DNA of 64,000 nucleotides from an uncultured Acidobacteriota bacterium (GTDB lineage Bacteria; Acidobacteriota; Thermoanaerobaculia; Multivoradales; DATKCC01). The position numbers were made by a program, and so were the translations under genes. The notes below the pieces were generated by a model. That model saw only the letters and a list, made by a program, of their open reading frames with translations, had not been told where the DNA came from and did no database searches. The DNA lies in the NCBI GenBank assembly GCA_963739795.1, contig CAVUBL010000010.1:178799-242798 (forward strand). The letters are read 5' to 3'. Below, one piece after another: positions 2,752 through 57,564 of the stretch (positions are counted from its first letter, which is position 1; every line of letters starts with the position of its first letter).

Positions 2752-4242
<1,491 letters not shown>

Positions 4243-4274
4243 GGCGGCGGAGCTCCGTCTCGGCCGGAAGGGGC

Positions 4275-5468
4275 TTGCGGTTGTTCCGCTCGCGCCTGCC
4301 GTTTCCCGTCCTCCTCGCTCTGCGCTACCTGCGGAGCACCCGCCGGGACGCCTTCACGACCTTTCTCTCGGTGGTGGCGGTGGGCGCCATCACGGTGGGG
4401 GTGGCGGCCTTGATCCTCTCGCTCTCGGCCCTCGCCGGGTTCCAGAGCCTGCTGCGCTCGGAGGTCCTGGCCCAGACCCCGGAGATTGAGGTCGCCCTGC
4501 CCGACGACCTGGCGCCGAAGGCCGAGGTCGCCGCGGAGCGGACCGCCCGCGGGGTGACGGGAGTGCGCTCGGTGGCGGCGGTGGTCCGGGGGCACGGTTG
4601 GCTGGTGCGGTCCGGGCGCGTGGTGCCCGCGGACCTCATGGGCTTCGAGGGCGCTACGCCCCCCGCCCTGCCCGGCATCGAGGGTTCGGGGCGGGGTCTC
4701 TACCTGTCCCGGACCCTGGCCTCGTCGTGGGCGCTGCGTCAGGGAGCCGTGGTCGAGGTCGTCTCGCCGCGACCCACCTTGACCCCCATGGGCCCCCAGC
4801 CGCGCCTGCGCAGCCTTCCTCTGGCCGGCACCTACTCGGGCGGACGGGTGATGGAGACGGAGCGCGCCGCCCTGCCCCTGGACGTGGCCGAGAGCCTTCT
4901 GGGAAGGGGCCGGAGGCACCTGCTGGTGGACGCAGGAGGGCTCGACGCGGCCCTGGCCCTCGCCCCGCGCCTCGCCGCCGTCCTGCCCGCGGGCTCTCGC
5001 GTCGACACCTGGAAGGACCTGAACCGGCCGCTCTTCTTCGCCCTCCGGCTCGAGCGGCTCTTCCTGTTCCTGGGCGTGTCGCTGATCGTGGTCGTGGCCT
5101 CCCTCGCTCTCCTGGCCGACCTGGCCCTGATCCTGGCCAACAAGCGCGAGGACATGGGGATGCTCCTGACCCTCGGGGCCACCCCCCGCACCCTGCGGCG
5201 GGCGTTCTTGCTCCTGGGCGGGCTCCTCGCCCTCCTCGGCTCCTTCGTCGGCTCGGTCCTGGGGGTGGGCGCCTCGCTCCTCTTCGACCGCTTTCGGCTG
5301 ATCCATCTGCCGGGCGACGTCTTCTTCGTCGACTACATCCCCTTCCAGGTGCGGCCGGCCAACCTGGTGATCATCCTGACGGTGACCCTGGGCCTGGCCT
5401 TCGCCGCCTCCTTCTACGGCGCCGGCAAGGCCGCCGCCCTGGAACCCATCGAGGCACTGCGGCGATGA
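4275..5468 (+). CDS. LolC/LolE-family lipoprotein-release ABC permease (FtsX-like)
   Basis: Four-TM FtsX/MacB-type permease with a periplasmic domain, followed directly by lolD. The TTG start at 4275 has a GGAAGG Shine-Dalgarno 4 nt upstream. The alternative start is the TTG at 4281. Confidence 0.75.
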   Translation: MRLFRSRLPFPVLLALRYLRSTRRDAFTTFLSVVAVGAITVGVAALILSLSALAGFQSLLRSEVLAQTPEIEVALPDDLAPKAEVAAERTARGVTGVRSVAAVVRGHGWLVRSGRVVPADLMGFEGATPPALPGIEGSGRGLYLSRTLASSWALRQGAVVEVVSPRPTLTPMGPQPRLRSLPLAGTYSGGRVMETERAALPLDVAESLLGRGRRHLLVDAGGLDAALALAPRLAAVLPAGSRVDTWKDLNRPLFFALRLERLFLFLGVSLIVVVASLALLADLALILANKREDMGMLLTLGATPRTLRRAFLLLGGLLALLGSFVGSVLGVGASLLFDRFRLIHLPGDVFFVDYIPFQVRPANLVIILTVTLGLAFAASFYGAGKAAALEPIEALRR

Positions 5469-38460: not shown

Positions 38461-38535
38461 TGGGGCGTCGCCAAGTGGCAAGGCACGGGACTTTGGATCC
38501 CGCATTCGTAGGTTCGAATCCTACCGCCCCAACCA
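38461..38535 (+). tRNA. tRNA-Gln (anticodon UUG)
   Basis: Cloverleaf folded by hand. The 7-bp acceptor is UGGGGCG/CGCCCCA and the D-stem is the 3-bp type typical of tRNA-Gln. The anticodon stem is CGGGA/UCCCG with loop CUUUGGA, and the T-arm is GUAGG-UUCGAAU-CCUAC. Discriminator A and an encoded CCA. Confidence 0.9.
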
Positions 38536-48339: not shown

Positions 48340-48924
48340 ATGAGCGAGCTCGACCGACCGGACGCCCCGACTCCGCAGCCCGAGCCCCCGGCCGCACCGT
48401 CCCCCTTCGACCCGCCGCCGGGTGCGGGCGGAGAAGGGCGCGGGACCGGCCCCGGAGTGGGCAAGCCCCTGCTCATCGGCTGCGGCGCTCTCTTCGTTCT
48501 CCTGATCGCCGCCGTGGTGCTGTTCGTGGTCAAGGAGAGCTCCATCTTCGGATGGTTCCTGGAGACGGTCCAGACCGAGATCCAGTCCTTGGTGCCGACC
48601 GATCTCCCCAAGGCCGAGCGCGACCGCCTCGACCGGGCCTTCGCGGTGGCCATCGAGGCGACGCGCGCCGGCCAGGCCGATCCCATCGCCCTCCAGCAGG
48701 CGCTGCAGCAGATCCAGCGCGGGGTCTCGGCCGCCGCGGAGCAAGGGCAGAAGGCGAAGCTCTCGCCGGCCGCCGTCGAGGAGATCACCAAGGCCCTGGA
48801 GGCGATTCCACGCTCCGGGTCGGGCCAAGAGCCGCGCCCGGAGGAGGCGCCGGCACCGGCCCAGCCCGCCCCCCAGCCCGGAGACGGGCAGGCCACGGGG
48901 CCGCCTCCGGTCTCTTCGGTCTGA
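48340..48924 (+). CDS. hypothetical single-pass membrane protein
   Basis: ATG at 48340, a Pro-rich N-terminus, one TM helix ([21 protein letters not shown]) and a helical Gln/Ala-rich C-terminus. Divergent from mrcA. Confidence 0.45.
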
Positions 48925-48994
48925 CCCTGCCGGAACAAACCCGCGGCCGGAGGCGGTTGTAGCTCCGCCGGCGCGCGGCGCCGGACCCACCGCC

Positions 48995-50986
48995 ATGGAC
49001 CGCTTCCGCCTCGTCTCGCCCTTCGAGCCCCAGGGAGACCAGCCCGAGGCCATCCGCCAGCTCGTGGAGGGCGTCCGGCGCGGCGACCGCGAGCAGGTTC
49101 TCCTCGGGGTCACCGGCTCGGGCAAGACCTTTTCGATCGCCAAGATGGTGGAGGCCGTCAACCGGCCGACCCTCGTCTTGTCCCACAACAAGACCCTGGG
49201 GGCCCAGCTCTTCCAGGAGTTCCGGAGCTTCTTCCCCGACAACGCGGTGGAGTACTTCGTCTCCTACTACGACTACTACCAGCCCGAGGCGTACGTACCC
49301 CAGAGCGACACGTACATCGAAAAGGAGACCTCGATCAACGAGGAGATCGACCGCCTCCGGCTGCGCGCCACCAAAGCTCTGTTCGAGCGCCGGGACGTGC
49401 TGGTCGTGGCCTCGGTCTCGTGCATCTACGGCCTGGGCTCACCGGAGGCGTTCTTCGGCATGCTCCGGTTCTTCGAGGTGGGAGCCGACGCCGGCCTCGA
49501 CGCGGCCCTGGCGAGCCTGGTCGCCATGCAGTACGACCGCACCAATCTCGACCTCTTCCACGGCTCGTTCCGGGTGCGCGGCGACATTCTGGAGATCCTC
49601 CCCGCCTACGAGGACAAGGGGATCCGGATCGAGTACTTCGGCGACGAGATCGAGCGGATCAGCCGCTTCGACCCCCTGCGCGGCGACGTGCTTTCGACCC
49701 CGGACAAGGTCGCGGTCTTCCCTCGGACCCACTACGTGACCCCGCCCGAGCGCCTCCTCGCGGCGATCGAGGGCATCCGCCTCGAGCTCGCCGAGCGCCT
49801 CGCCGAGCTCGAAGGCGAGGGCAAGCTCCTGGAGTCGCAGCGCCTCGAGCAGCGGACCCGCTTCGACCTGGAGATGCTCAAGGAGATCGGCTACTGCCAC
49901 GGCATCGAGAACTACTCCCGGCATCTCTCGGGGCGGGAGGCTGGAGAGCCGCCGCCGACTCTCCTCGACTACCTGCCGGAAGACTTCCTCCTGATCGTGG
50001 ACGAAAGCCACCAGACCATGCCCCAGGTGCGGGCCATGTACCACGGCGACCGCTCCCGCAAGCAGACGCTCGTGGACTACGGCTTCCGCCTGCCCAGCGC
50101 CCTCGACAACCGGCCCCTGACCTTCGAGGAGTTCGACGCCCTGGTGGGCCAGCGGATCTACGTCTCGGCGACGCCGGCTCCCTTCGAGCTCGAGCGCACC
50201 GGCGGCGTGGTGGTGGAGCAGCTCATCCGCCCCACCGGCCTCCTGGACCCGGTGATCGAGATCCGCCCGGCCCGAGGCCAGGTCGACGACCTGATCGCCG
50301 AGATTCGCAAGGTGGTGGAGACGCGCGAGCGGGCCCTGGTGACCACCCTGACCAAGCGCATGGCCGAGGAGCTCACCCAGTACCTGACCGAGCTCGGCCT
50401 GCGGGTGCGCTACATGCACTCGGACATCGAGACCCTGGAGCGGGTGGAGATCGTCACCGCCCTGCGTCGCGGGGAGTTCGACGTGCTGGTGGGCATCAAT
50501 CTCCTGCGCGAGGGCCTGGACCTGCCGGAGGTCAGCCTGGTGGCGATCCTCGACGCCGACAAGGAGGGTTTCCTGCGCAGCCAGACCTCCCTCGTTCAGA
50601 CGGCGGGACGGGCGGCGCGCAACATCCACGGCCGGGTGATCTTCTACGCCGACCGGGAAACCGGCAGCATCGCGCGCGCCCTGGAAGAGACCACCCGGCG
50701 TCGCGAGGTGCAGCGGGCCTACAACGAGGAGCACGGCATCGAGCCGGCGACGATCCTCAAGGACATCCACAGCCCCCTGGTGGCCCTGGCGAACCTGGAC
50801 TACTACGAGACCGGGCAGCCCCAGATCCTGGAGGTGGCCGAGCGCTCCGAGATCCCCCTCGCCGAGCGCATCCAGCGCCTGGAGAAGGAGATGAAGGCCG
50901 CCGCCAAGCGCCTGGAGTTCGAGGAGGCCGCGGCCCTCCGGGACAAGCTCAAGGAGCTACGGGAGCTCCAGATCTTCTCGGCGTGA
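48995..50986 (+). CDS. uvrB: excinuclease ABC subunit B
   Basis: Walker A (GVTGSGKTF), the beta-hairpin region ([12 protein letters not shown]), helicase motifs and the UVR domain at the C-terminus ([11 protein letters not shown]). Confidence 0.95.
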
Positions 50987-52146
50987 CCTACCTCGACGGA
51001 TTCCGCGTCCTCGACCTCTCGCGGGTGCTCGCCGGGCCCCTCGCCACCCAGATCCTGGCCGACCTCGGGGCGGAGGTGTTGAAAGTCGAGCCGCCGGAGG
51101 GGGACGTGACCCGGCAGTGGGGGCCGCCCTTCCTGGGCACCGACGCGTCGTACTACCACGCGATCAACCGGGACAAGGCGTCCCTGGTCCTCGATCTACG
51201 GCGCGAGGCCGACCGGCGGCGCCTGGACGAGCTCGCCGGTCGGGCGGACGCCGTGGTCCACAACTACACGCCGTCGGCGGCCGACCGCCTCGGGCTGTCG
51301 GAGGTCCTGGAGCGCGCGGCCGAGCGGGCGGTGGTCCTGGGAGTCACCGGCTACCGGGGGGCGCGACGGGAAGACGTCGGTTTCGACCTGGTGCTCCAGG
51401 CGGAGGCCGGCTGGATGGCCATCACCGGGCCGGAGGAAGGCGAGCCCCACCGGGTCGGCGTGGCCGTGGTCGACGTGCTGACCGGAATGATGGCCGCGAG
51501 CGGCGTGCTGGCCGCCTTGCTCCGTCGCGAGCGGCACGGAGGGGGCGCGGTGCTCGGCGTCTCGCTCTTCCAGACCGCTCTCTGGAGCCTGGTCAACGTC
51601 GTCCAGGGGCACCTGGCGACCGGCGAGCCGACCCGCAGGCACGGCAACCGGCACCCGAGCCTGGCGCCCTACGAGCTCTTCCGGGCCGCCGACGGAGCCC
51701 TGGTGATCGGCGTCGGGACCGATGCCCAGTACGACCGGCTGTGCGACCTGTTGGGCATCACCGATCCCACGCTCCGCGGCCTGGACAACGCCGCGCGCGT
51801 GGCTCGCCGGCTGGCGATCGGTGAGGCGATCGGCGAGCGGGTCGTGGCCCGGCAGCGGGCCGATCTGCTGGCGTCGCTGCACGCGGCGCGCATCCCCGCC
51901 GGGCCGGTGCTCCGCCCGGACGAGGCCGTCGCCGCCTGCCGCTCCTGGGATCCGGGAGCGATGCTCGCCCTCGACCACGAATCCCTGGGGCGCCTCGAGT
52001 ACCTCGCCCCGCCCCTCGAAGGAGCTGGCCTGAGGGTGGCCCACAGCCCGCCACCGCTCCTGGGCGAGGGCGGCGAGGAGATGGCCCGGCGGTGGCTCGG
52101 CGCCGGCGGGCGGGGCGCTCTTGACGGTTCGAGGGGCGGGCCGTAG
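50983..52146 (+). CDS. CoA-transferase family III (CaiB/BaiF/Frc-like) protein
   Basis: [34 protein letters not shown]-terminus and the GxxAD..ALWSL regions typical of family III CoA-transferases. The GTG start overlaps the uvrB stop (GTGA). Confidence 0.8.
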
Positions 52147-52206
52147 CCTCGGTTCCCGTTGCCCGGTCGCCGGTTCCAACCGAGTCGGCGCCGTGGAGGT
52201 CTCCCG

Positions 52207-52632
52207 ATGCCGAGTCGCCAGACGAAGCCTAGCCTCACCCGAAAGTGCCTCAAGAACAAGTTCCAGAAGAAGTACTCGAGTCTCCACGGCCAGTACACCG
52301 GCTACACCTCGAAGACGGTCATTCGGCGGCCGCCGCGCAAGATCACCTTCGGCGAGCGGCGCTCCCAGTTCCTCAAGAACCCGGGGCACTTCTGGAACAC
52401 CACCAACCAGTGTCACACCGCGATCTTCAAGCTCCTCGTCGAGCAGGGGAAGATCTCGTCCGACGACCTGGACCAGGACTTCGACGAGAGGACCCTCCTC
52501 GACCCCTTCGAGACCACGACCTATCGGCCCGACCTCCGAAGCGTCGGTGACGACCTCCTGGAGGAGCTCCACTACGCCTCCGACTCCGACTCCGAGGACG
52601 AGTCCGACGTGGAGACGTTCGATGTCGACTAG
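52207..52632 (+). CDS. small hypothetical protein, basic N-terminal half and strongly acidic C-terminal tail
   Basis: 141 aa from the ATG at 52207 (the track ORF starts at 52159). GC3-rich codon usage like neighbouring genes. The N-terminus is rich in Lys and Arg with Cys and His (RKCLKNKFQKKYSSLH...NQCHTAIF), and the C-terminus reads DSDSEDESDVETFDVD. The stop lies 3 nt before the uvrC GTG. Confidence 0.5.
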   Translation: MPSRQTKPSLTRKCLKNKFQKKYSSLHGQYTGYTSKTVIRRPPRKITFGERRSQFLKNPGHFWNTTNQCHTAIFKLLVEQGKISSDDLDQDFDERTLLDPFETTTYRPDLRSVGDDLLEELHYASDSDSEDESDVETFDVD

Positions 52633-52635
52633 CCC

Positions 52636-54471
52636 GTGAGCGTTCCTGCCGTCCATTCCATCGTCGAGGAGAAGATCCGGTCCCTGCCGGACCGCCCCGG
52701 GATCTACGTCTTCAAGGACGCCCGGGGCAGGGCGCTGTACGTGGGCAAGGCCAAGAGCCTCAGGAAGCGGGGAGCCTCCTACCTGACCCGCGGCCACGAC
52801 CCGCGGATCGAGGCGATGCTCGCCGAAGCCCGGGACCTGGACTTCGTCCTCACGGACTCGGGGGCCGAGGCCCTCTTGCTGGAGAACAACTGGATCAAGA
52901 CCAAGCGCCCGCGCTACAACATCCTGCTGCGCGACGACAAGACCTACCCCTACCTCAAGCTCACCGCCGATCCCTTCCCGCGCCTCGCCTTCACCCGCCG
53001 CATTCGCGACGACGGCGCCGAGTACTTCGGGCCCTTCATCCCCGGCGGGCGCGCGCGCAAAGCGATCAAGCTCACCCAGAAGCTGTTCGGCATCCGGGTG
53101 TGCCGGATCGAGATCGACGGCACCTTGCCTCGGCCCTGTCTGTACTACGACATGCACCGCTGCCTGGGGCCCTGCGTCGCCGGACTCACGACTCCGGCTG
53201 CCTACGCGGAGGGGATCGCCGAGGCGCGCCTGTTCCTGTCGGGCCGGACCGACCGGCTGGTCAAGCGCATGAAGCGACGCATGGGCACCGCAGCCGAACG
53301 CCTCGATTTCGAGGAGGCGGCGCGCCTGCGCGACCTGATCGCCGAGGTCGAAGGCCTCACCGAGCGCCGCAAGCTCTCCTCGGTGGCGGGGGAGGACGTG
53401 GACGTGTTCGGAGTGCACGCGGCGGGGGACCATGCGGCCCTCACGGTGCTGGTCATGCGCGGCGGCCAGATCCTCGACCGGCGCGAGCTGTTCTGGGAAG
53501 GGATCGGCGAGGTGACCGCCGAAGGGCTCCTGTCGGAGGTGGTCCCCCAGATCTACGACCGCACGACCTTCATCCCCAAGGAGGTCCACCTGCCGGCGCC
53601 GGTGGAGGAGCCCGAGGCCCTCGCCGAATGGCTCTCGGAAAAGAAGGGTGAGCGGGTCTACGTGCGGATGCCGTCGCGGGGGCCGAAGGCGGACCGCGTG
53701 GCGCTGGCGGGACGGAACGCCGAGATGGCCTGGAAGCGCCGTTTCCGCCAGGCCCGGGAGCCCGCGGCCGGCGCCGAGGCTCTGGCCCACCACCTCCACC
53801 TCCTCGAGCCCCCACGCCGCATCGAAGGCTTCGACATCTCCACCTTCCACGGCGGAGAGACCGTGGCCTCGGTGGTGGTCTGGGAGGAGGGACGGATGCG
53901 CAAGCGCGAGTACCGAAGCCTGAACATCCGCGGCCTCGAGGGAGAGGCCGACGACTTCTTCTCCATGGGCCAGGCGGTGGAGCGGCGGTACCGCCGGCGC
54001 CTGGACGAGGTGGGCGAGATGCCGGAGCTGATCCTCATCGACGGCGGCCGTGGGCAGCTCAACGCCGCCCTGGAGGCCCTGGTCGCCCTGAGAGTGGAGG
54101 AGACGCCCATCGTCGGCCTGGCCAAGCGCGAGGAGGAGCTCTACTTGCCCGAGCGGCCCGAGCCCCTCCGGCTGCCCCGCGGCGACGCCGGCCTCCAGCT
54201 CTTGCAGGAGATCCGCGACGAGGCACACCGCTTCGCCGTCGCCCGCCACCGCAAGCGGCGCTCGAAGCGGACCCTGCGCAGCCGCCTGGACGACCTGCCG
54301 GGAGTGGGTCCGCGCCGGCGCCGGCTTCTGCTGCGGCGGTTCGGAAGCGTCGACGGCGTGCGCAGCGCCGAGGTGGCGGCGCTCCAGGAAGTCCTGGGTC
54401 CGGTGGTCGGTCGCAGGGTCTGGGAGGGGCTGCGTCCGGAGGCCGAGCGGCCGGACGCTCCTTCGGCTTGA
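52636..54471 (+). CDS. uvrC: excinuclease ABC subunit C
   Basis: GIY-YIG domain (PGIYVFKDARGRALYVGKAKSLRKR), UVR domain, RNase H-like endonuclease domain and C-terminal HhH. Confidence 0.9.
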   Translation: MSVPAVHSIVEEKIRSLPDRPGIYVFKDARGRALYVGKAKSLRKRGASYLTRGHDPRIEAMLAEARDLDFVLTDSGAEALLLENNWIKTKRPRYNILLRDDKTYPYLKLTADPFPRLAFTRRIRDDGAEYFGPFIPGGRARKAIKLTQKLFGIRVCRIEIDGTLPRPCLYYDMHRCLGPCVAGLTTPAAYAEGIAEARLFLSGRTDRLVKRMKRRMGTAAERLDFEEAARLRDLIAEVEGLTERRKLSSVAGEDVDVFGVHAAGDHAALTVLVMRGGQILDRRELFWEGIGEVTAEGLLSEVVPQIYDRTTFIPKEVHLPAPVEEPEALAEWLSEKKGERVYVRMPSRGPKADRVALAGRNAEMAWKRRFRQAREPAAGAEALAHHLHLLEPPRRIEGFDISTFHGGETVASVVVWEEGRMRKREYRSLNIRGLEGEADDFFSMGQAVERRYRRRLDEVGEMPELILIDGGRGQLNAALEALVALRVEETPIVGLAKREEELYLPERPEPLRLPRGDAGLQLLQEIRDEAHRFAVARHRKRRSKRTLRSRLDDLPGVGPRRRRLLLRRFGSVDGVRSAEVAALQEVLGPVVGRRVWEGLRPEAERPDAPSA

Positions 54472-54495
54472 TCTCGGGATAGACTGTCCCTTCGT

Positions 54496-55314
54496 ATGAT
54501 GGGAAAACTCGCCACGATCCAGGTCCTGTCCCGCTTCCAAGAACGGGTGCGCCGGGACCTGGACCGCTCGCCTCTGGATCTGGACTCCGATACGCACCGG
54601 CGCCGGCTCGCGGAGATCCTCGTACGCTGTGGCCGCGACACCCACTACGAGTTGCTGGGCGTGTCCCCCGGGGCCGGCGAGAGCGAGGTGCATTCGGCCT
54701 ACCTCCGCCTCGCCCGCGAGGTCCACCCGGACCACGCCGACCACCTCGGCCTCGGCGGGCGCCAGGGGGTCATCGAGGTCCTCTTCGAGCGGGCGACGGA
54801 AGCCTACCTGGTGCTCTGCGACCCCCATCGGCGCAGCGAGTACGACCGCTGGGCCGCCGTCGAGTCCCGGCGGACGGAGGAGGAGCGGCGCGAGGAGGCC
54901 CGCGACCTGACCCGCGATCTGGTGGCTCGGGCCGCCATCCTGGTCGACCGGGAGGACTACCACTTCGCCTTGGAGATCCTGCGCCAGGCGGTGCGCACCG
55001 ATCCGGAGTCCCACGAGGCCTGGGCGCTCCTCGGCAGGGTCCAGGCGCGCAACCCGAAGTGGCTGCACATGGCTAACGACAACCTGCGGCGCGCGATCGA
55101 GCTCGCGCCGGACCAGATCGAGTACCGCTACGCCCTGGCCGAGGTGGAAGAGAAGCGGGGGCGCCGCGAGCCGGCCCTGCGGCTCTACGAGCAGATCCTG
55201 GAGAGCCTTCCCGGCCACCCCCTGGCCACCGAGGCCCGCGACCGCTTGGCCAGCAAGCTCAAGGCGGAGACCAAGGAGGGCCGGCGGGGTGCCGGGCTCT
55301 TCCGCAAGCGCTGA
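54496..55314 (+). CDS. DnaJ-domain (J-domain) protein with TPR repeats
   Basis: J-domain (HYELLGVSPGAGESEVHSAYLRLAREVHPDHAD, HPD present) followed by TPR-like repeats. Confidence 0.75.
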   Translation: MMGKLATIQVLSRFQERVRRDLDRSPLDLDSDTHRRRLAEILVRCGRDTHYELLGVSPGAGESEVHSAYLRLAREVHPDHADHLGLGGRQGVIEVLFERATEAYLVLCDPHRRSEYDRWAAVESRRTEEERREEARDLTRDLVARAAILVDREDYHFALEILRQAVRTDPESHEAWALLGRVQARNPKWLHMANDNLRRAIELAPDQIEYRYALAEVEEKRGRREPALRLYEQILESLPGHPLATEARDRLASKLKAETKEGRRGAGLFRKR

Positions 55315-55433
55315 CCTGCGTCCGCCTTCCCGGCCGGGAAGAAGGATGGGGCGTCCAGTCCCCCTTCAGAGGTGGACACGGAATCGAACGCTCGCCGGGA
55401 AGGGTAGGCCGCCTCGATTCCGTTAGACTAGTG

Positions 55434-55855
<422 letters not shown>

Positions 55856-55873
<18 letters not shown>

Positions 55874-56776
55874 TCGTTTCCACCCCCGGTCCGCCCCGGC
55901 GACCGGGTGGGCGTGGCGGCCCTCTCGGGGCCGGTGGACGCGGAGCGCCTGGCCCGAGGCCTGGCGGCCCTCGAAGAGCTCGGCTTCGAGCCGGTGCCGG
56001 CGGCGAACCTGGGCTCTCGATCCGGCCTGTTCGCCGGCTCGGACGCCGAGCGGCTCGACGCCTTCCATCGCCTGGCTGCCGATCCGTCGATCCGGGCCGT
56101 GATCTTCGCCCGGGGCGGGTACGGCGTCACCCGCCTCCTGCCCGGGATCGACTGGGAGCTCCTCGCCCGCCACCCGCGGGCCTACGTCGGCTACTCCGAC
56201 CTGACACCGTTTCTCCTCGCCGTGGTCTTCCGCCTCGGCTGGGTGGCGTTCCACGGGCCCATGGTGGCGGCAGACCTGGCGCGCGGCCTCTCCGAGCGGG
56301 AGGAGCGGAGCCTGCTCGGGGCCCTGGCCGGCGAGGTGGCGCCGGAGCTTCTGCCCGCGGCCACCTGGCTCCGCCGGGGCGAGGCGCAGGGGCCGCTCCT
56401 CGGTGGCTGCCTCAGCCTCCTCGTCTCGTTGCTCGGCACGCCCTGGGCACCGCGGCTCGAGGGTTCGATTCTCTTCTGGGAGGAGGTCGGTGAGCCCATC
56501 TACCGCCTCGACCGAATGTTGACCCACCTCAGGCTGTCGGGTAGTCTCGCCGCCATCGGAGGCATGGCGGTCGGCCACTGCCGGCCCGTGGGCGAAGGCG
56601 CCGAAGGGGCTCCTCTCCGGCCCGATCAGCTCGCGGAGGTGGTGGCCGGTTTCGCTTGGCCGGTGGCGGTGGGGCTGGAGGCGGGCCACGAGGCGCCGAA
56701 CCTGACGTTGCCCCTCGGTGCCACGGCCCGGCTCGACTCCGAGGCCGGCGGCTTGGAGGTGAGGTTTCCTCGATGA
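55856..56776 (+). CDS. ldcA: LD-carboxypeptidase (peptidase S66, muramoyltetrapeptide carboxypeptidase)
   Basis: S66 motifs (PGDRVGVAALSGP, IFARGGYGVTRLL, YVGYSDLTPFL, ILFWEEVGEPIYRLDRMLTHL). The annotated ATG overlaps the rnpB 3' end by about 18 nt. An in-frame GTG near 55904 is an alternative start. Confidence 0.75.
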
Positions 56777-57564
56777 ACAACACCGTGTTCAAGACCACCG
56801 GGCGCCCACCGGCGCCCGCCTATAAGAGTGTCGACCGGGCGGAGGGAGAGTGGGTCTTCGAGGAGGCGACCCTCGGCACCGAGATGTACATCGTGCAGGA
56901 GGGACAGGTCGAGGTCCTCAAGAGGGTCGGGGAGGAGGATCGCCAGCTCACGGTGCTCGAGAAGGGGGATTTCTTCGGCGAGATGGCCCTCCTCGAGGGG
57001 CTTCCCCGGGCTGCCGGCGTCCGCGCCCTGACCGCGGTCAAGCTTCTCGAGATCAACGGTGCCACGTTCAACAAGATGCTCCGGGACAACCCGGAGATCG
57101 CGGTGCGGATGATGCGCAAGCTCTCCCGCCGCATGCGCGAGACCGACGCCCTGCTGCGCGAGCTGGGCGCCGAGCAGATCCCCCAGGGCCCGCCGGCACC
57201 TCCGGAGCCGGCCCGCCAGGAAGAGGTGGAGACGGAGGCGGTTTCGGAGCACCTGGTGCACAAGAAGTCGGGCATGGACTTCTTCTTCGCCCGGGGAACC
57301 GAGACCAGCGTCGGCCGGCGCGATCCGGTGACCGGCATCTACCCCGACGTCGACCTCTCCCCGGTGGACAGTCAGCGCTCCATCAGCCGCCGCCACGCCA
57401 AGATCTTCCGTCGCGGGGCGAAGTACTTCCTCTCCGAGGAGATCGGCACGATGAACGGCACCTTCGTCAACGGCGAGCGCCTGGAGACCGGCGTGCCGGC
57501 CGAGGTCAAGCCGGGGGACGAGCTGCGCATCGGCGTCGTCGAGCTCGAGTTCCGCCTGTCCTGA
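56773..57564 (+). CDS. cyclic-nucleotide-binding domain protein with C-terminal FHA domain
   Basis: cNMP-binding signature (KGDFFGEMALLEGLPRAAGVRAL), a Pro-rich linker, then an FHA-like fold (SVGRR...SISRRHAKIFRRGAKYFLSEEIGTMNGTFVNGERL). ATGA overlap with ldcA. Confidence 0.7.
   Translation: MNNTVFKTTGRPPAPAYKSVDRAEGEWVFEEATLGTEMYIVQEGQVEVLKRVGEEDRQLTVLEKGDFFGEMALLEGLPRAAGVRALTAVKLLEINGATFNKMLRDNPEIAVRMMRKLSRRMRETDALLRELGAEQIPQGPPAPPEPARQEEVETEAVSEHLVHKKSGMDFFFARGTETSVGRRDPVTGIYPDVDLSPVDSQRSISRRHAKIFRRGAKYFLSEEIGTMNGTFVNGERLETGVPAEVKPGDELRIGVVELEFRLS

Follow-up and report, generated by a model that had tools for sequence, protein, structure and literature searches.

Organization of the locus

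The window, the whole 64,000-nucleotide stretch analysed here, carries uvrB (positions 48995–50986), a CoA_transf_3 gene (50983–52146), an open reading frame of 141 codons (52207–52632) and uvrC (52636–54471), all on the forward strand. Pfam matches on L002, a locus identical to this one, identify uvrC and support the assignment of the uvrB reading frame; the CoA_transf_3 gene was assigned from a gene call, from Pfam matches on L002 and by blastn against the related contig L015. The 141-codon frame, hereafter the relic, starts with ATG and ends with TAG at 52630–52632, and its translation equals the one quoted in the earlier note; uvrC begins with GTG 3 nt after this stop. Farther downstream, a full-length class A RNase P RNA (55440–55871, forward strand, 260.9 bits) lies between a DnaJ/TPR gene and a Peptidase_S66 gene, and the long open reading frames called mechanically across it are not genes. 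The window also holds a single tRNA gene (38461–38532, forward strand; Rfam tRNA, 65 bits).

The relic is a real coding sequence, as the earlier note had argued from its base composition. GC contents at codon positions 1, 2 and 3 are 0.54, 0.39 and 0.93 in the relic frame, and the other two frames are free of such a bias. The third-position bias matches that of uvrC (0.74/0.47/0.92), uvrB (0.70/0.39/0.95) and other neighbouring genes. Four records from different runs, each assembled separately, yield the same 141-residue protein (GCA_964443905.1, two Logan runs and a 514-kb contig), and homologues were found, so the frame is not there by chance. Local GC at the relic is 0.61–0.64, below the ~0.71 of the window; this is a property of the Lys/Asn/Ser/Asp-rich sequence of the parent family overall. 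The net charge is +15 over residues 1–57 (16 Lys/Arg, one Asp/Glu) and −18 over residues 58–141, which bears out the division into a basic N-terminal half and an acidic tail described before. That no known family could be recognized was likewise confirmed: Pfam and NCBIfam scans of the 141-residue protein and of a related 204-residue form gave no match, even at E values up to 10.

A Shine-Dalgarno sequence, GGAGG (52195–52199, forward strand; −12 to −8), ends 7 nt before the ATG and is invariant in the window and in the related loci L015, L001 and L005. Upstream of it, TTGACG (52121–52126) and TAGCCT (52144–52149), separated by 17 nt, make up a promoter-like block (52121–52149, forward strand) that is conserved in the four loci. 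The −10-like element reads TACGCT in L005 and TAGCCT in the window, giving the shared pattern TTGACG-N17-TA(G/C)(C/G)CT at the four uvr-linked loci. A scan of 50800–55500 for strict sigma-70 promoters and terminators returned zero sites, and it is the conservation of the block that points to a putative promoter role. Because the parental promoter-like block, Shine-Dalgarno sequence, start and stop are all kept, the relic is probably still transcribed and translated. At its 3' end (52100–52146), the CoA_transf_3 gene takes its final ~15 codons from DNA that is intergenic and promoter-like in L015 and L001, and the TAG stop of this gene (52144–52146) forms the start of the conserved TAGCCT.

The relic joins both ends of a ~350-residue gene

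A word-indexed search of 5.8 billion proteins returned only the relic itself and one relative, P0002 (204 residues, on contig L001), which also lies directly upstream of uvrC and carries a 63-residue middle segment absent from the relic. The profile search that the earlier note had proposed was more productive: an exhaustive HMMER search with the aligned 141/204-residue pair yielded 23 proteins. The good matches are 330–360 residues long and align over two separate stretches, one N-terminal and one C-terminal, with the motifs HAEQKI(L/M) and GTFRPC(R/A)GC standing between the two stretches in every case. Since these proteins match at both ends and have an extra core in between, the 141- and 204-residue forms are internal deletions. 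A scan of genome contigs with the short forms alone found zero relatives. A scan of metagenomes contributed just a copy identical to L001 and full-length members of the Rubrivivax type, and further deletion variants were not found in it.

Synteny gives the same picture. L015, a 14.5-kb metagenomic contig with 88–91% DNA identity to window positions 48920–57500, has the gene order of the window: uvrB, CoA_transf_3, family gene, uvrC, DnaJ/TPR and Peptidase_S66. Its family gene is full-length (351 residues, P0024) and stands directly before uvrC. By blastn, the core of this gene (L015 4961–5584) is absent from the window, as is L015 4164–4704 (541 nt), which contains a 128-residue gene. The first 56 residues of the relic are 82% identical to P0024, and its C-terminal part is 86% identical to P0024 from about residue 259. 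At L005, a more distant locus, uvrB is followed directly by a full-length 350-residue gene, and this in turn directly by uvrC.

A codon-level comparison with L005 and L001 places the deletion junction at codon 57 of the relic, AAG (Lys; 52375–52377, forward strand). The junction reads CTC A/AG AAC CCG, where A stems from position 1 of the parental Thr57 codon and AG from positions 2 and 3 of the codon that immediately precedes NPGHFW in the parent. Accordingly, the blastn alignment with L015 breaks between window positions 52375 and 52376, corresponding to L015 4960 and 5585. The deletion measures 621 nt (207 codons) in L005 numbering and 624 nt by L015 coordinates, and parental residues 57–263 are gone. 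Judged from the junction sequence, a single event with both breakpoints inside codons accounts for everything seen here, including the novel Lys57. Microhomology at the junction amounts to only 1–2 nt, and long repeats are absent.

The 204-residue form carries a single in-frame deletion of 441 nt with the junction TAC G/GG CAT. The Asn-Pro preceding GHFW is kept in the window relic and missing from the 204-residue form. Since the left and right breakpoints both differ between the two forms, the deletions are independent. The contigs L001 and L024, which carry the 204-residue form, are 100% identical over 1582 nt and come from ENA (ERZ27257094) and JGI (Ga0102952), respectively; they may represent one sample assembled twice and thus give no independent confirmation of this form.

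Aligned with P0024, codons 1–56 of the relic (52207–52374) encode the basic leader (residues 1–46), with the LHGQYTG and RRxQFL motifs of the ~350-residue family, and 10 residues from the start of the first core helix. Codons 58–120 (52378–52566) encode the NPGHFWNTT loop that follows strand 4 (PGHxWxTT in the family), helix 4 (NQCHTAIFKLLVEQG), a short helix and the TTYRPxLR segment. Codons 121–141 (52567–52629; all three segments on the forward strand) specify the family-conserved acidic tail LHYASDSDSEDESDVETFDVD, which has the family pattern LHYxSDSDSD with the invariant S334; compared with its relatives, the tail of the relic is two codons shorter and has three changes in its last five residues. 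In terms of the predicted fold, the deletion connects residue 56, near the beginning of helix 1, with the loop that follows strand 4. The core domain (~residues 47–300) is thus incomplete, and the relic is a truncated derivative rather than an intact member of the family. The H/C-x-E motif at the start of helix 2 and the P-C-x-x-C motif at the start of helix 3 both lay within the deleted 207 codons, and the relic has no three-layer alpha/beta/alpha fold with a central sheet. With all beta strands and the three zinc ligands gone, the relic cannot act as a deaminase, and most of the chain is predicted to lack structure. The structure prediction that had been suggested produced no usable fold: the AlphaFold2 model of the 204-residue form, computed from the 204/141-residue pair and holding almost all of the relic sequence, has a uniformly low pLDDT of 38 and could not be used for a fold search.

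The relic contains two cysteines, Cys14 and Cys69. Cys14 is replaced by arginine in all three close relatives (P0002, P0024 and P0003); Cys69, within NQCH, is common to the close relatives, yet variable across the wider family. The relic lacks the conserved set of three to four Cys/His ligands found in zinc-ribbon-like small proteins, and Cys69/His70 belong to helix 4 of the deaminase-like parent. The Cys/His metal site once considered for the N-terminal half is therefore not supported, as Cys14 is not conserved and the zinc ligands of the family lie in the deleted part.

Collectively, these data make us highly confident that the 141-residue frame represents both ends of a ~350-residue deaminase-like gene after an in-frame deletion of 207 codons. 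What had looked like a self-contained small module is the N- and C-terminal ends of a larger protein fused to each other. The bipartite charge consists of the basic head and the acidic SDSD tail of the family, brought side by side by the deletion; the acidic stretch singled out in the earlier note is thus a conserved family feature, but its attachment to this head is secondary. The same note had allowed that the frame might be the disordered tail of a mis-split gene. Loss of the parental core comes close to this in spirit, but the idea that uvrC or the CoA-transferase gene had been mis-split to give the relic was rejected on account of different frames, intervening stops and the conserved Shine-Dalgarno sequence and start that the relic has for itself.

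The parent family has hallmarks of deaminases

The parent family comprises 29 clusters at 90% identity among the 5.8 billion proteins, all unnamed or annotated as 'hypothetical', and 5 loci among 185,579 species representatives, which lie in metagenome-assembled genomes of Burkholderiales, Rubrivivax, two Pseudomonadota and one Acidobacteriota. None of the Pfam, NCBIfam and PADLOC models reaches threshold against full-length members; with the PADLOC defence HMMs, P0001, P0024 and P0009 gave no match and P0006 gave one weak, irrelevant match. Sub-threshold Pfam matches were obtained to dCMP_cyt_deam_1 (4 of 10 members), XOO_2897-deam (two), Pput2613-deam (one) and SNAD4 (one), and all of them fall on the HAE/PCxGC region. 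In 14 diverse members, H213, A214, E215, C242, G244 and C245 are invariant (P0003 numbering), with His213, Cys242 and Cys245 as the predicted zinc ligands, all located in the part deleted from the relic. Across the full-length relatives, GTFRPC(R/A)GC shows little or no variation, and G267, W270, T272, T273 and the tail residue S334 are also family-invariant.

An AlphaFold2 model of P0003, computed with the family alignment as input, has a pLDDT of 77 and a pTM of 0.79. HAE and PCxGC are located at the N-termini of helices 214–224 and 243–255, respectively, with a strand (233–237) between them; such a helix-strand-helix placing of the HAE and PCxxC motifs is the arrangement of the deaminase superfamily (PMC3239186). 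In the N-terminal part, a helix at 11–21 is followed by a low-confidence segment (25–41) and by a helix starting at 47; in the C-terminal part, helices 271–286 and 292–298 precede the acidic tail, which is disordered (pLDDT below 50). According to the model, the parent would begin with a Lys/Arg-rich leader, after which helix 1, a beta-hairpin and a helical insert lead up to helix 2, which bears HAEQKI, and helix 3, which bears GTFRPCxGC; the PGHxWxTT loop, helix 4 and the disordered acidic SDSDSD tail follow. The basic leader occurs throughout the family, as does the acidic LHYxSDSDSD tail. The model further suggests a long insert of ~120 residues between the conserved N-terminal hairpin (residues 77–91) and helix 2, from which the low scores in deaminase searches may stem.

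Searches against known structures and sequences were less informative. Foldseek with the parent model found no match in the PDB with an E value below 0.5, and the family profile run against PDB sequences retrieved only coiled-coil noise (MafG, moesin). With hhalign, the family profile paired HAE and PCxxC with those of a single TadA sequence at a non-significant E value of 0.04; with a single AID sequence, the result was not significant and the alignment spurious. A literature search for a uvr-linked deaminase, or for an account of the present HGQYTG...HAEQKI...GTFRPCxGC...SDSD family, brought up nothing relevant, and uvrB and uvrC are not mentioned by Iyer et al. 2011 (PMC3239186).

Between L015 and L005, the full-length gene has an omega of 0.17 over its core and of 0.12 over its C-terminal part, values that indicate purifying selection. 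The parent represents a rare, undescribed and unannotated family with deaminase hallmarks, and the evidence that it belongs to the zinc-deaminase superfamily is consistent but not strong.

The uvrB–uvrC junction is a variable cargo site

Among matches with a named source, the best ones to the window's UvrC place the window in Thermoanaerobaculia (phylum Acidobacteriota), and within this group the content of the uvrB–uvrC interval differs between related loci. The window has the CoA-transferase gene and the relic; L015 and L016 have the CoA-transferase gene, the 128-residue gene and the full-length family gene; in L005 the deaminase-like gene is the sole occupant; L023 carries a pair of unannotated genes on the minus strand, with products of 388 and 497 residues. 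In L020 and L022, whose UvrC proteins are 87–88% identical to that of the window, uvrB and uvrC are 3–4 nt apart with nothing between them. Over the 3' segment of uvrB, the window is 89–91% identical to L020/L022 and 83% identical to L005. By uvrB, L020 and L022 are thus nearer to the window than L005 is, so the gene was either cleanly lost there or moved between lineages. In the L020 record, uvrB (3005–4996) is called as two genes of 280 and 370 residues, reflecting a frameshift or an assembly error.

Family members beyond the uvr-linked Thermoanaerobaculia clade have unrelated neighbourhoods. At the Rubrivivax-type loci (L011 2920–11159, from a Rubrivivax metagenome-assembled genome, and L025–L027), the member lies downstream of reading frames that, from their N-termini, we take to be hrcA, recN and rapZ. 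About 3 kb from the full-length member of this type, on the other strand, is a frame that is presumably fpg/mutM-like, to judge by its N-terminal sequence. This may be a second, independent case of proximity to DNA-repair genes, or chance. On contig L006, a 223-residue reading frame truncated by the contig end (1219–1887) lies downstream of the family member P0004.

The earlier note had described the small gene as coupled to uvrC and had proposed looking for its conservation upstream of uvrC. The 3-nt gap speaks for the former, and a family gene does stand directly upstream of uvrC in four related loci; but the association is confined to one Thermoanaerobaculia clade, L020 and L022 have uvrB and uvrC adjacent without the gene, and in other lineages the family is not linked to uvrC. 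Given the unrelated contexts elsewhere and the gene-less sister lineages, the linkage to uvrC is positional and clade-specific and does not reflect a conserved functional pairing. The uvrB–uvrC junction is a variable cargo site in one Thermoanaerobaculia group.

The parent gene would be accessory cargo at this junction that has repeatedly been disabled or discarded, possibly owing to the cost of having a nucleic-acid deaminase inside the cell. No Shine-Dalgarno sequence stands at a working distance from uvrC in the window, L015 or L001, and together with the 3-nt gap this suggests that uvrC could be translated by termination-reinitiation coupling. An out-of-frame deletion would end translation early and could cut UvrC, and this would account for the fact that the two deletions that survive preserve the frame; the open frame may owe its persistence to selection against lesions, polar or out of frame, by which UvrC translation is lowered, and to the recent date of the deletion. 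The argument for coupling is weakened by L005 and L023, where uvrC also lacks a Shine-Dalgarno sequence and no upstream stop adjoins it.

Selection and possible functions of the relic

Between the window and L015, omega is 0.30 for the N-terminal and 0.27 for the C-terminal part of the relic; between the two deleted forms, it is 0.81 and 0.24, respectively, with 0.27 for the uvrC genes of that pair. In comparisons involving the window, the C-terminal value of 0.24–0.27 is similar to the omega of uvrC (0.27). Changes found only in the window comprise 6.5 non-synonymous and 3.5 synonymous events against a neutral expectation of ~3.5:1, too few to separate neutral from constrained evolution. As dS between the window and its full-length neighbour is about 0.2, the deletion is recent, and the omega values cannot decide on selection. 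We are highly confident of a single 621–624-nt in-frame deletion in a resident ~350-residue gene; that the relic most likely has no function of its own we hold with moderate confidence, and the account as a whole we consider likely.

The main alternative is that the conserved termini could have retained a role. The relic would then be neo- or sub-functionalized, its C-terminal module (PGHFWNTT, helix 4, TTYRPxLR and LHYASDSDSD), perhaps together with the basic head, still working without catalysis, for instance by binding a partner of the parent enzyme, as a DNA-mimicking or auto-inhibitory acidic element, or by modulating UvrC or UvrB. Two independent deletions confined to the core, each leaving the reading frame and the two ends in place, could reflect such a role, as could the uvrC-like omega of the C-terminal part (0.24–0.27), the intact reading frame with its conserved start, Shine-Dalgarno sequence and promoter-like block, and the conservation of the basic head and SDSD tail throughout the family. 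With a dS of only ~0.2, however, the low omega largely records history before the deletion; the changes specific to the window are indistinguishable from neutral ones and include the loss of two codons and the replacement of three of the last five residues, and the N-terminal part reaches an omega of 0.81 between the two deleted forms. Sister lineages manage without the gene, no partner is known and the predicted structure is disordered, so we regard a retained role as unlikely. Much further down the scale stands the original proposal of a dedicated small nucleic-acid- or metal-binding partner of UvrC with a Cys/His site and a DNA-mimic tail. In its favour, the division of charge and the 3-nt gap before uvrC are real, and the position directly before uvrC recurs in the four related loci. 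Its architecture, however, was born of the deletion, and the full-length syntenic homologue largely refutes it; Cys14 is Arg in the relatives, Cys69/His70 lie in helix 4 and the zinc ligands are deleted. Moreover, close relatives with 87–88% identical UvrC do without such a gene and members beyond the clade are not found beside uvr genes, which leaves this proposal very improbable.

It is harder still to credit that the relic is an artefact, either no gene at all or the product of a mis-assembly that collapsed a full-length gene. The source is metagenome-assembled and the GC content dips locally to 0.61–0.64, lower than in the flanks; but lower GC is typical of the sequence of the whole family, third-position GC in frame is 0.93, the identical reading frame recurs in four separately assembled records from different runs, and with 1–2 nt of microhomology the junction offers no long repeat able to cause a collapse. 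A more far-reaching extension concerns the parent. It might form an undescribed clade of stand-alone, cytoplasmic, probably nucleic-acid-directed deaminases with a basic leader and an auto-inhibitory acidic tail, candidate damage-linked mutators or DNA/RNA editors; the repeated removal of nothing but the core (in the window and in L001) would then reflect selection that disarms the enzyme and preserves either a non-catalytic function of the termini or the expression of UvrC. We offer this as a speculative and rather doubtful possibility.

Returning to the reading we prefer, loss of the core from a resident gene, ordinary gene decay accounts for an orphan small protein of strikingly asymmetric charge, and the pursuit of this protein as a new UvrC cofactor is therefore unwarranted without further evidence. 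More interest attaches to the parent family, to its location at the uvrB–uvrC junction and to its repeated disarming than to the relic. New deaminase clades have repeatedly been a source of base-editing tools, toxins, mutators and editors. As the family goes undetected by Pfam, NCBIfam and PADLOC, any survey built on annotated deaminase families would be expected to overlook it. A deaminase clade between uvrB and uvrC that is repeatedly disarmed would offer a concrete, testable case of the carrying cost of an enzyme; if the assignment is true, the placement could mean that the parent deaminase is co-expressed with excision repair.

Comparison with known systems

In the way it was formed, the relic resembles in-frame-deleted genes that are kept before a close downstream gene: it arose by a single in-frame deletion, its expression signals are intact and its stop lies 3 nt before a uvrC without a Shine-Dalgarno sequence. 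It differs from them in that coupling is here deduced from spacing only.

The parent family was also compared with bacterial toxin DNA deaminases, namely DddB/BadTF3 (9k3e), SsdA (9c63), DddA-type enzymes and the Pfam families XOO_2897-deam and Pput2613-deam. In contrast to these, its members are stand-alone proteins of about 350 residues with no trafficking or secretion domain detectable by Pfam, no signal peptide evident by eye and no conserved neighbour as a possible immunity gene, the context differing in each lineage. The secretion or trafficking domain and adjacent immunity gene of the DddA/SsdA/BaDTF kind are thus not found; apart from weak deaminase matches, Pfam detects no domain. The 128-residue gene of L015 and L001 was considered as an immunity protein and rejected; it is Cys-rich, has a signal-peptide-like N-terminus and is absent from L005 and from every other context of the family.

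A further kind for comparison are the AID/APOBEC enzymes (for example, APOBEC3H, PDB 5w3v), polynucleotide deaminases that contain helix 4 and have the zinc-dependent CDA fold. Compared with these, the parent family is distinguished by its basic leader, its SDSD tail and the suggested insert of ~120 residues, whereas the relic has kept the outer parts of such a protein and not its catalytic core.
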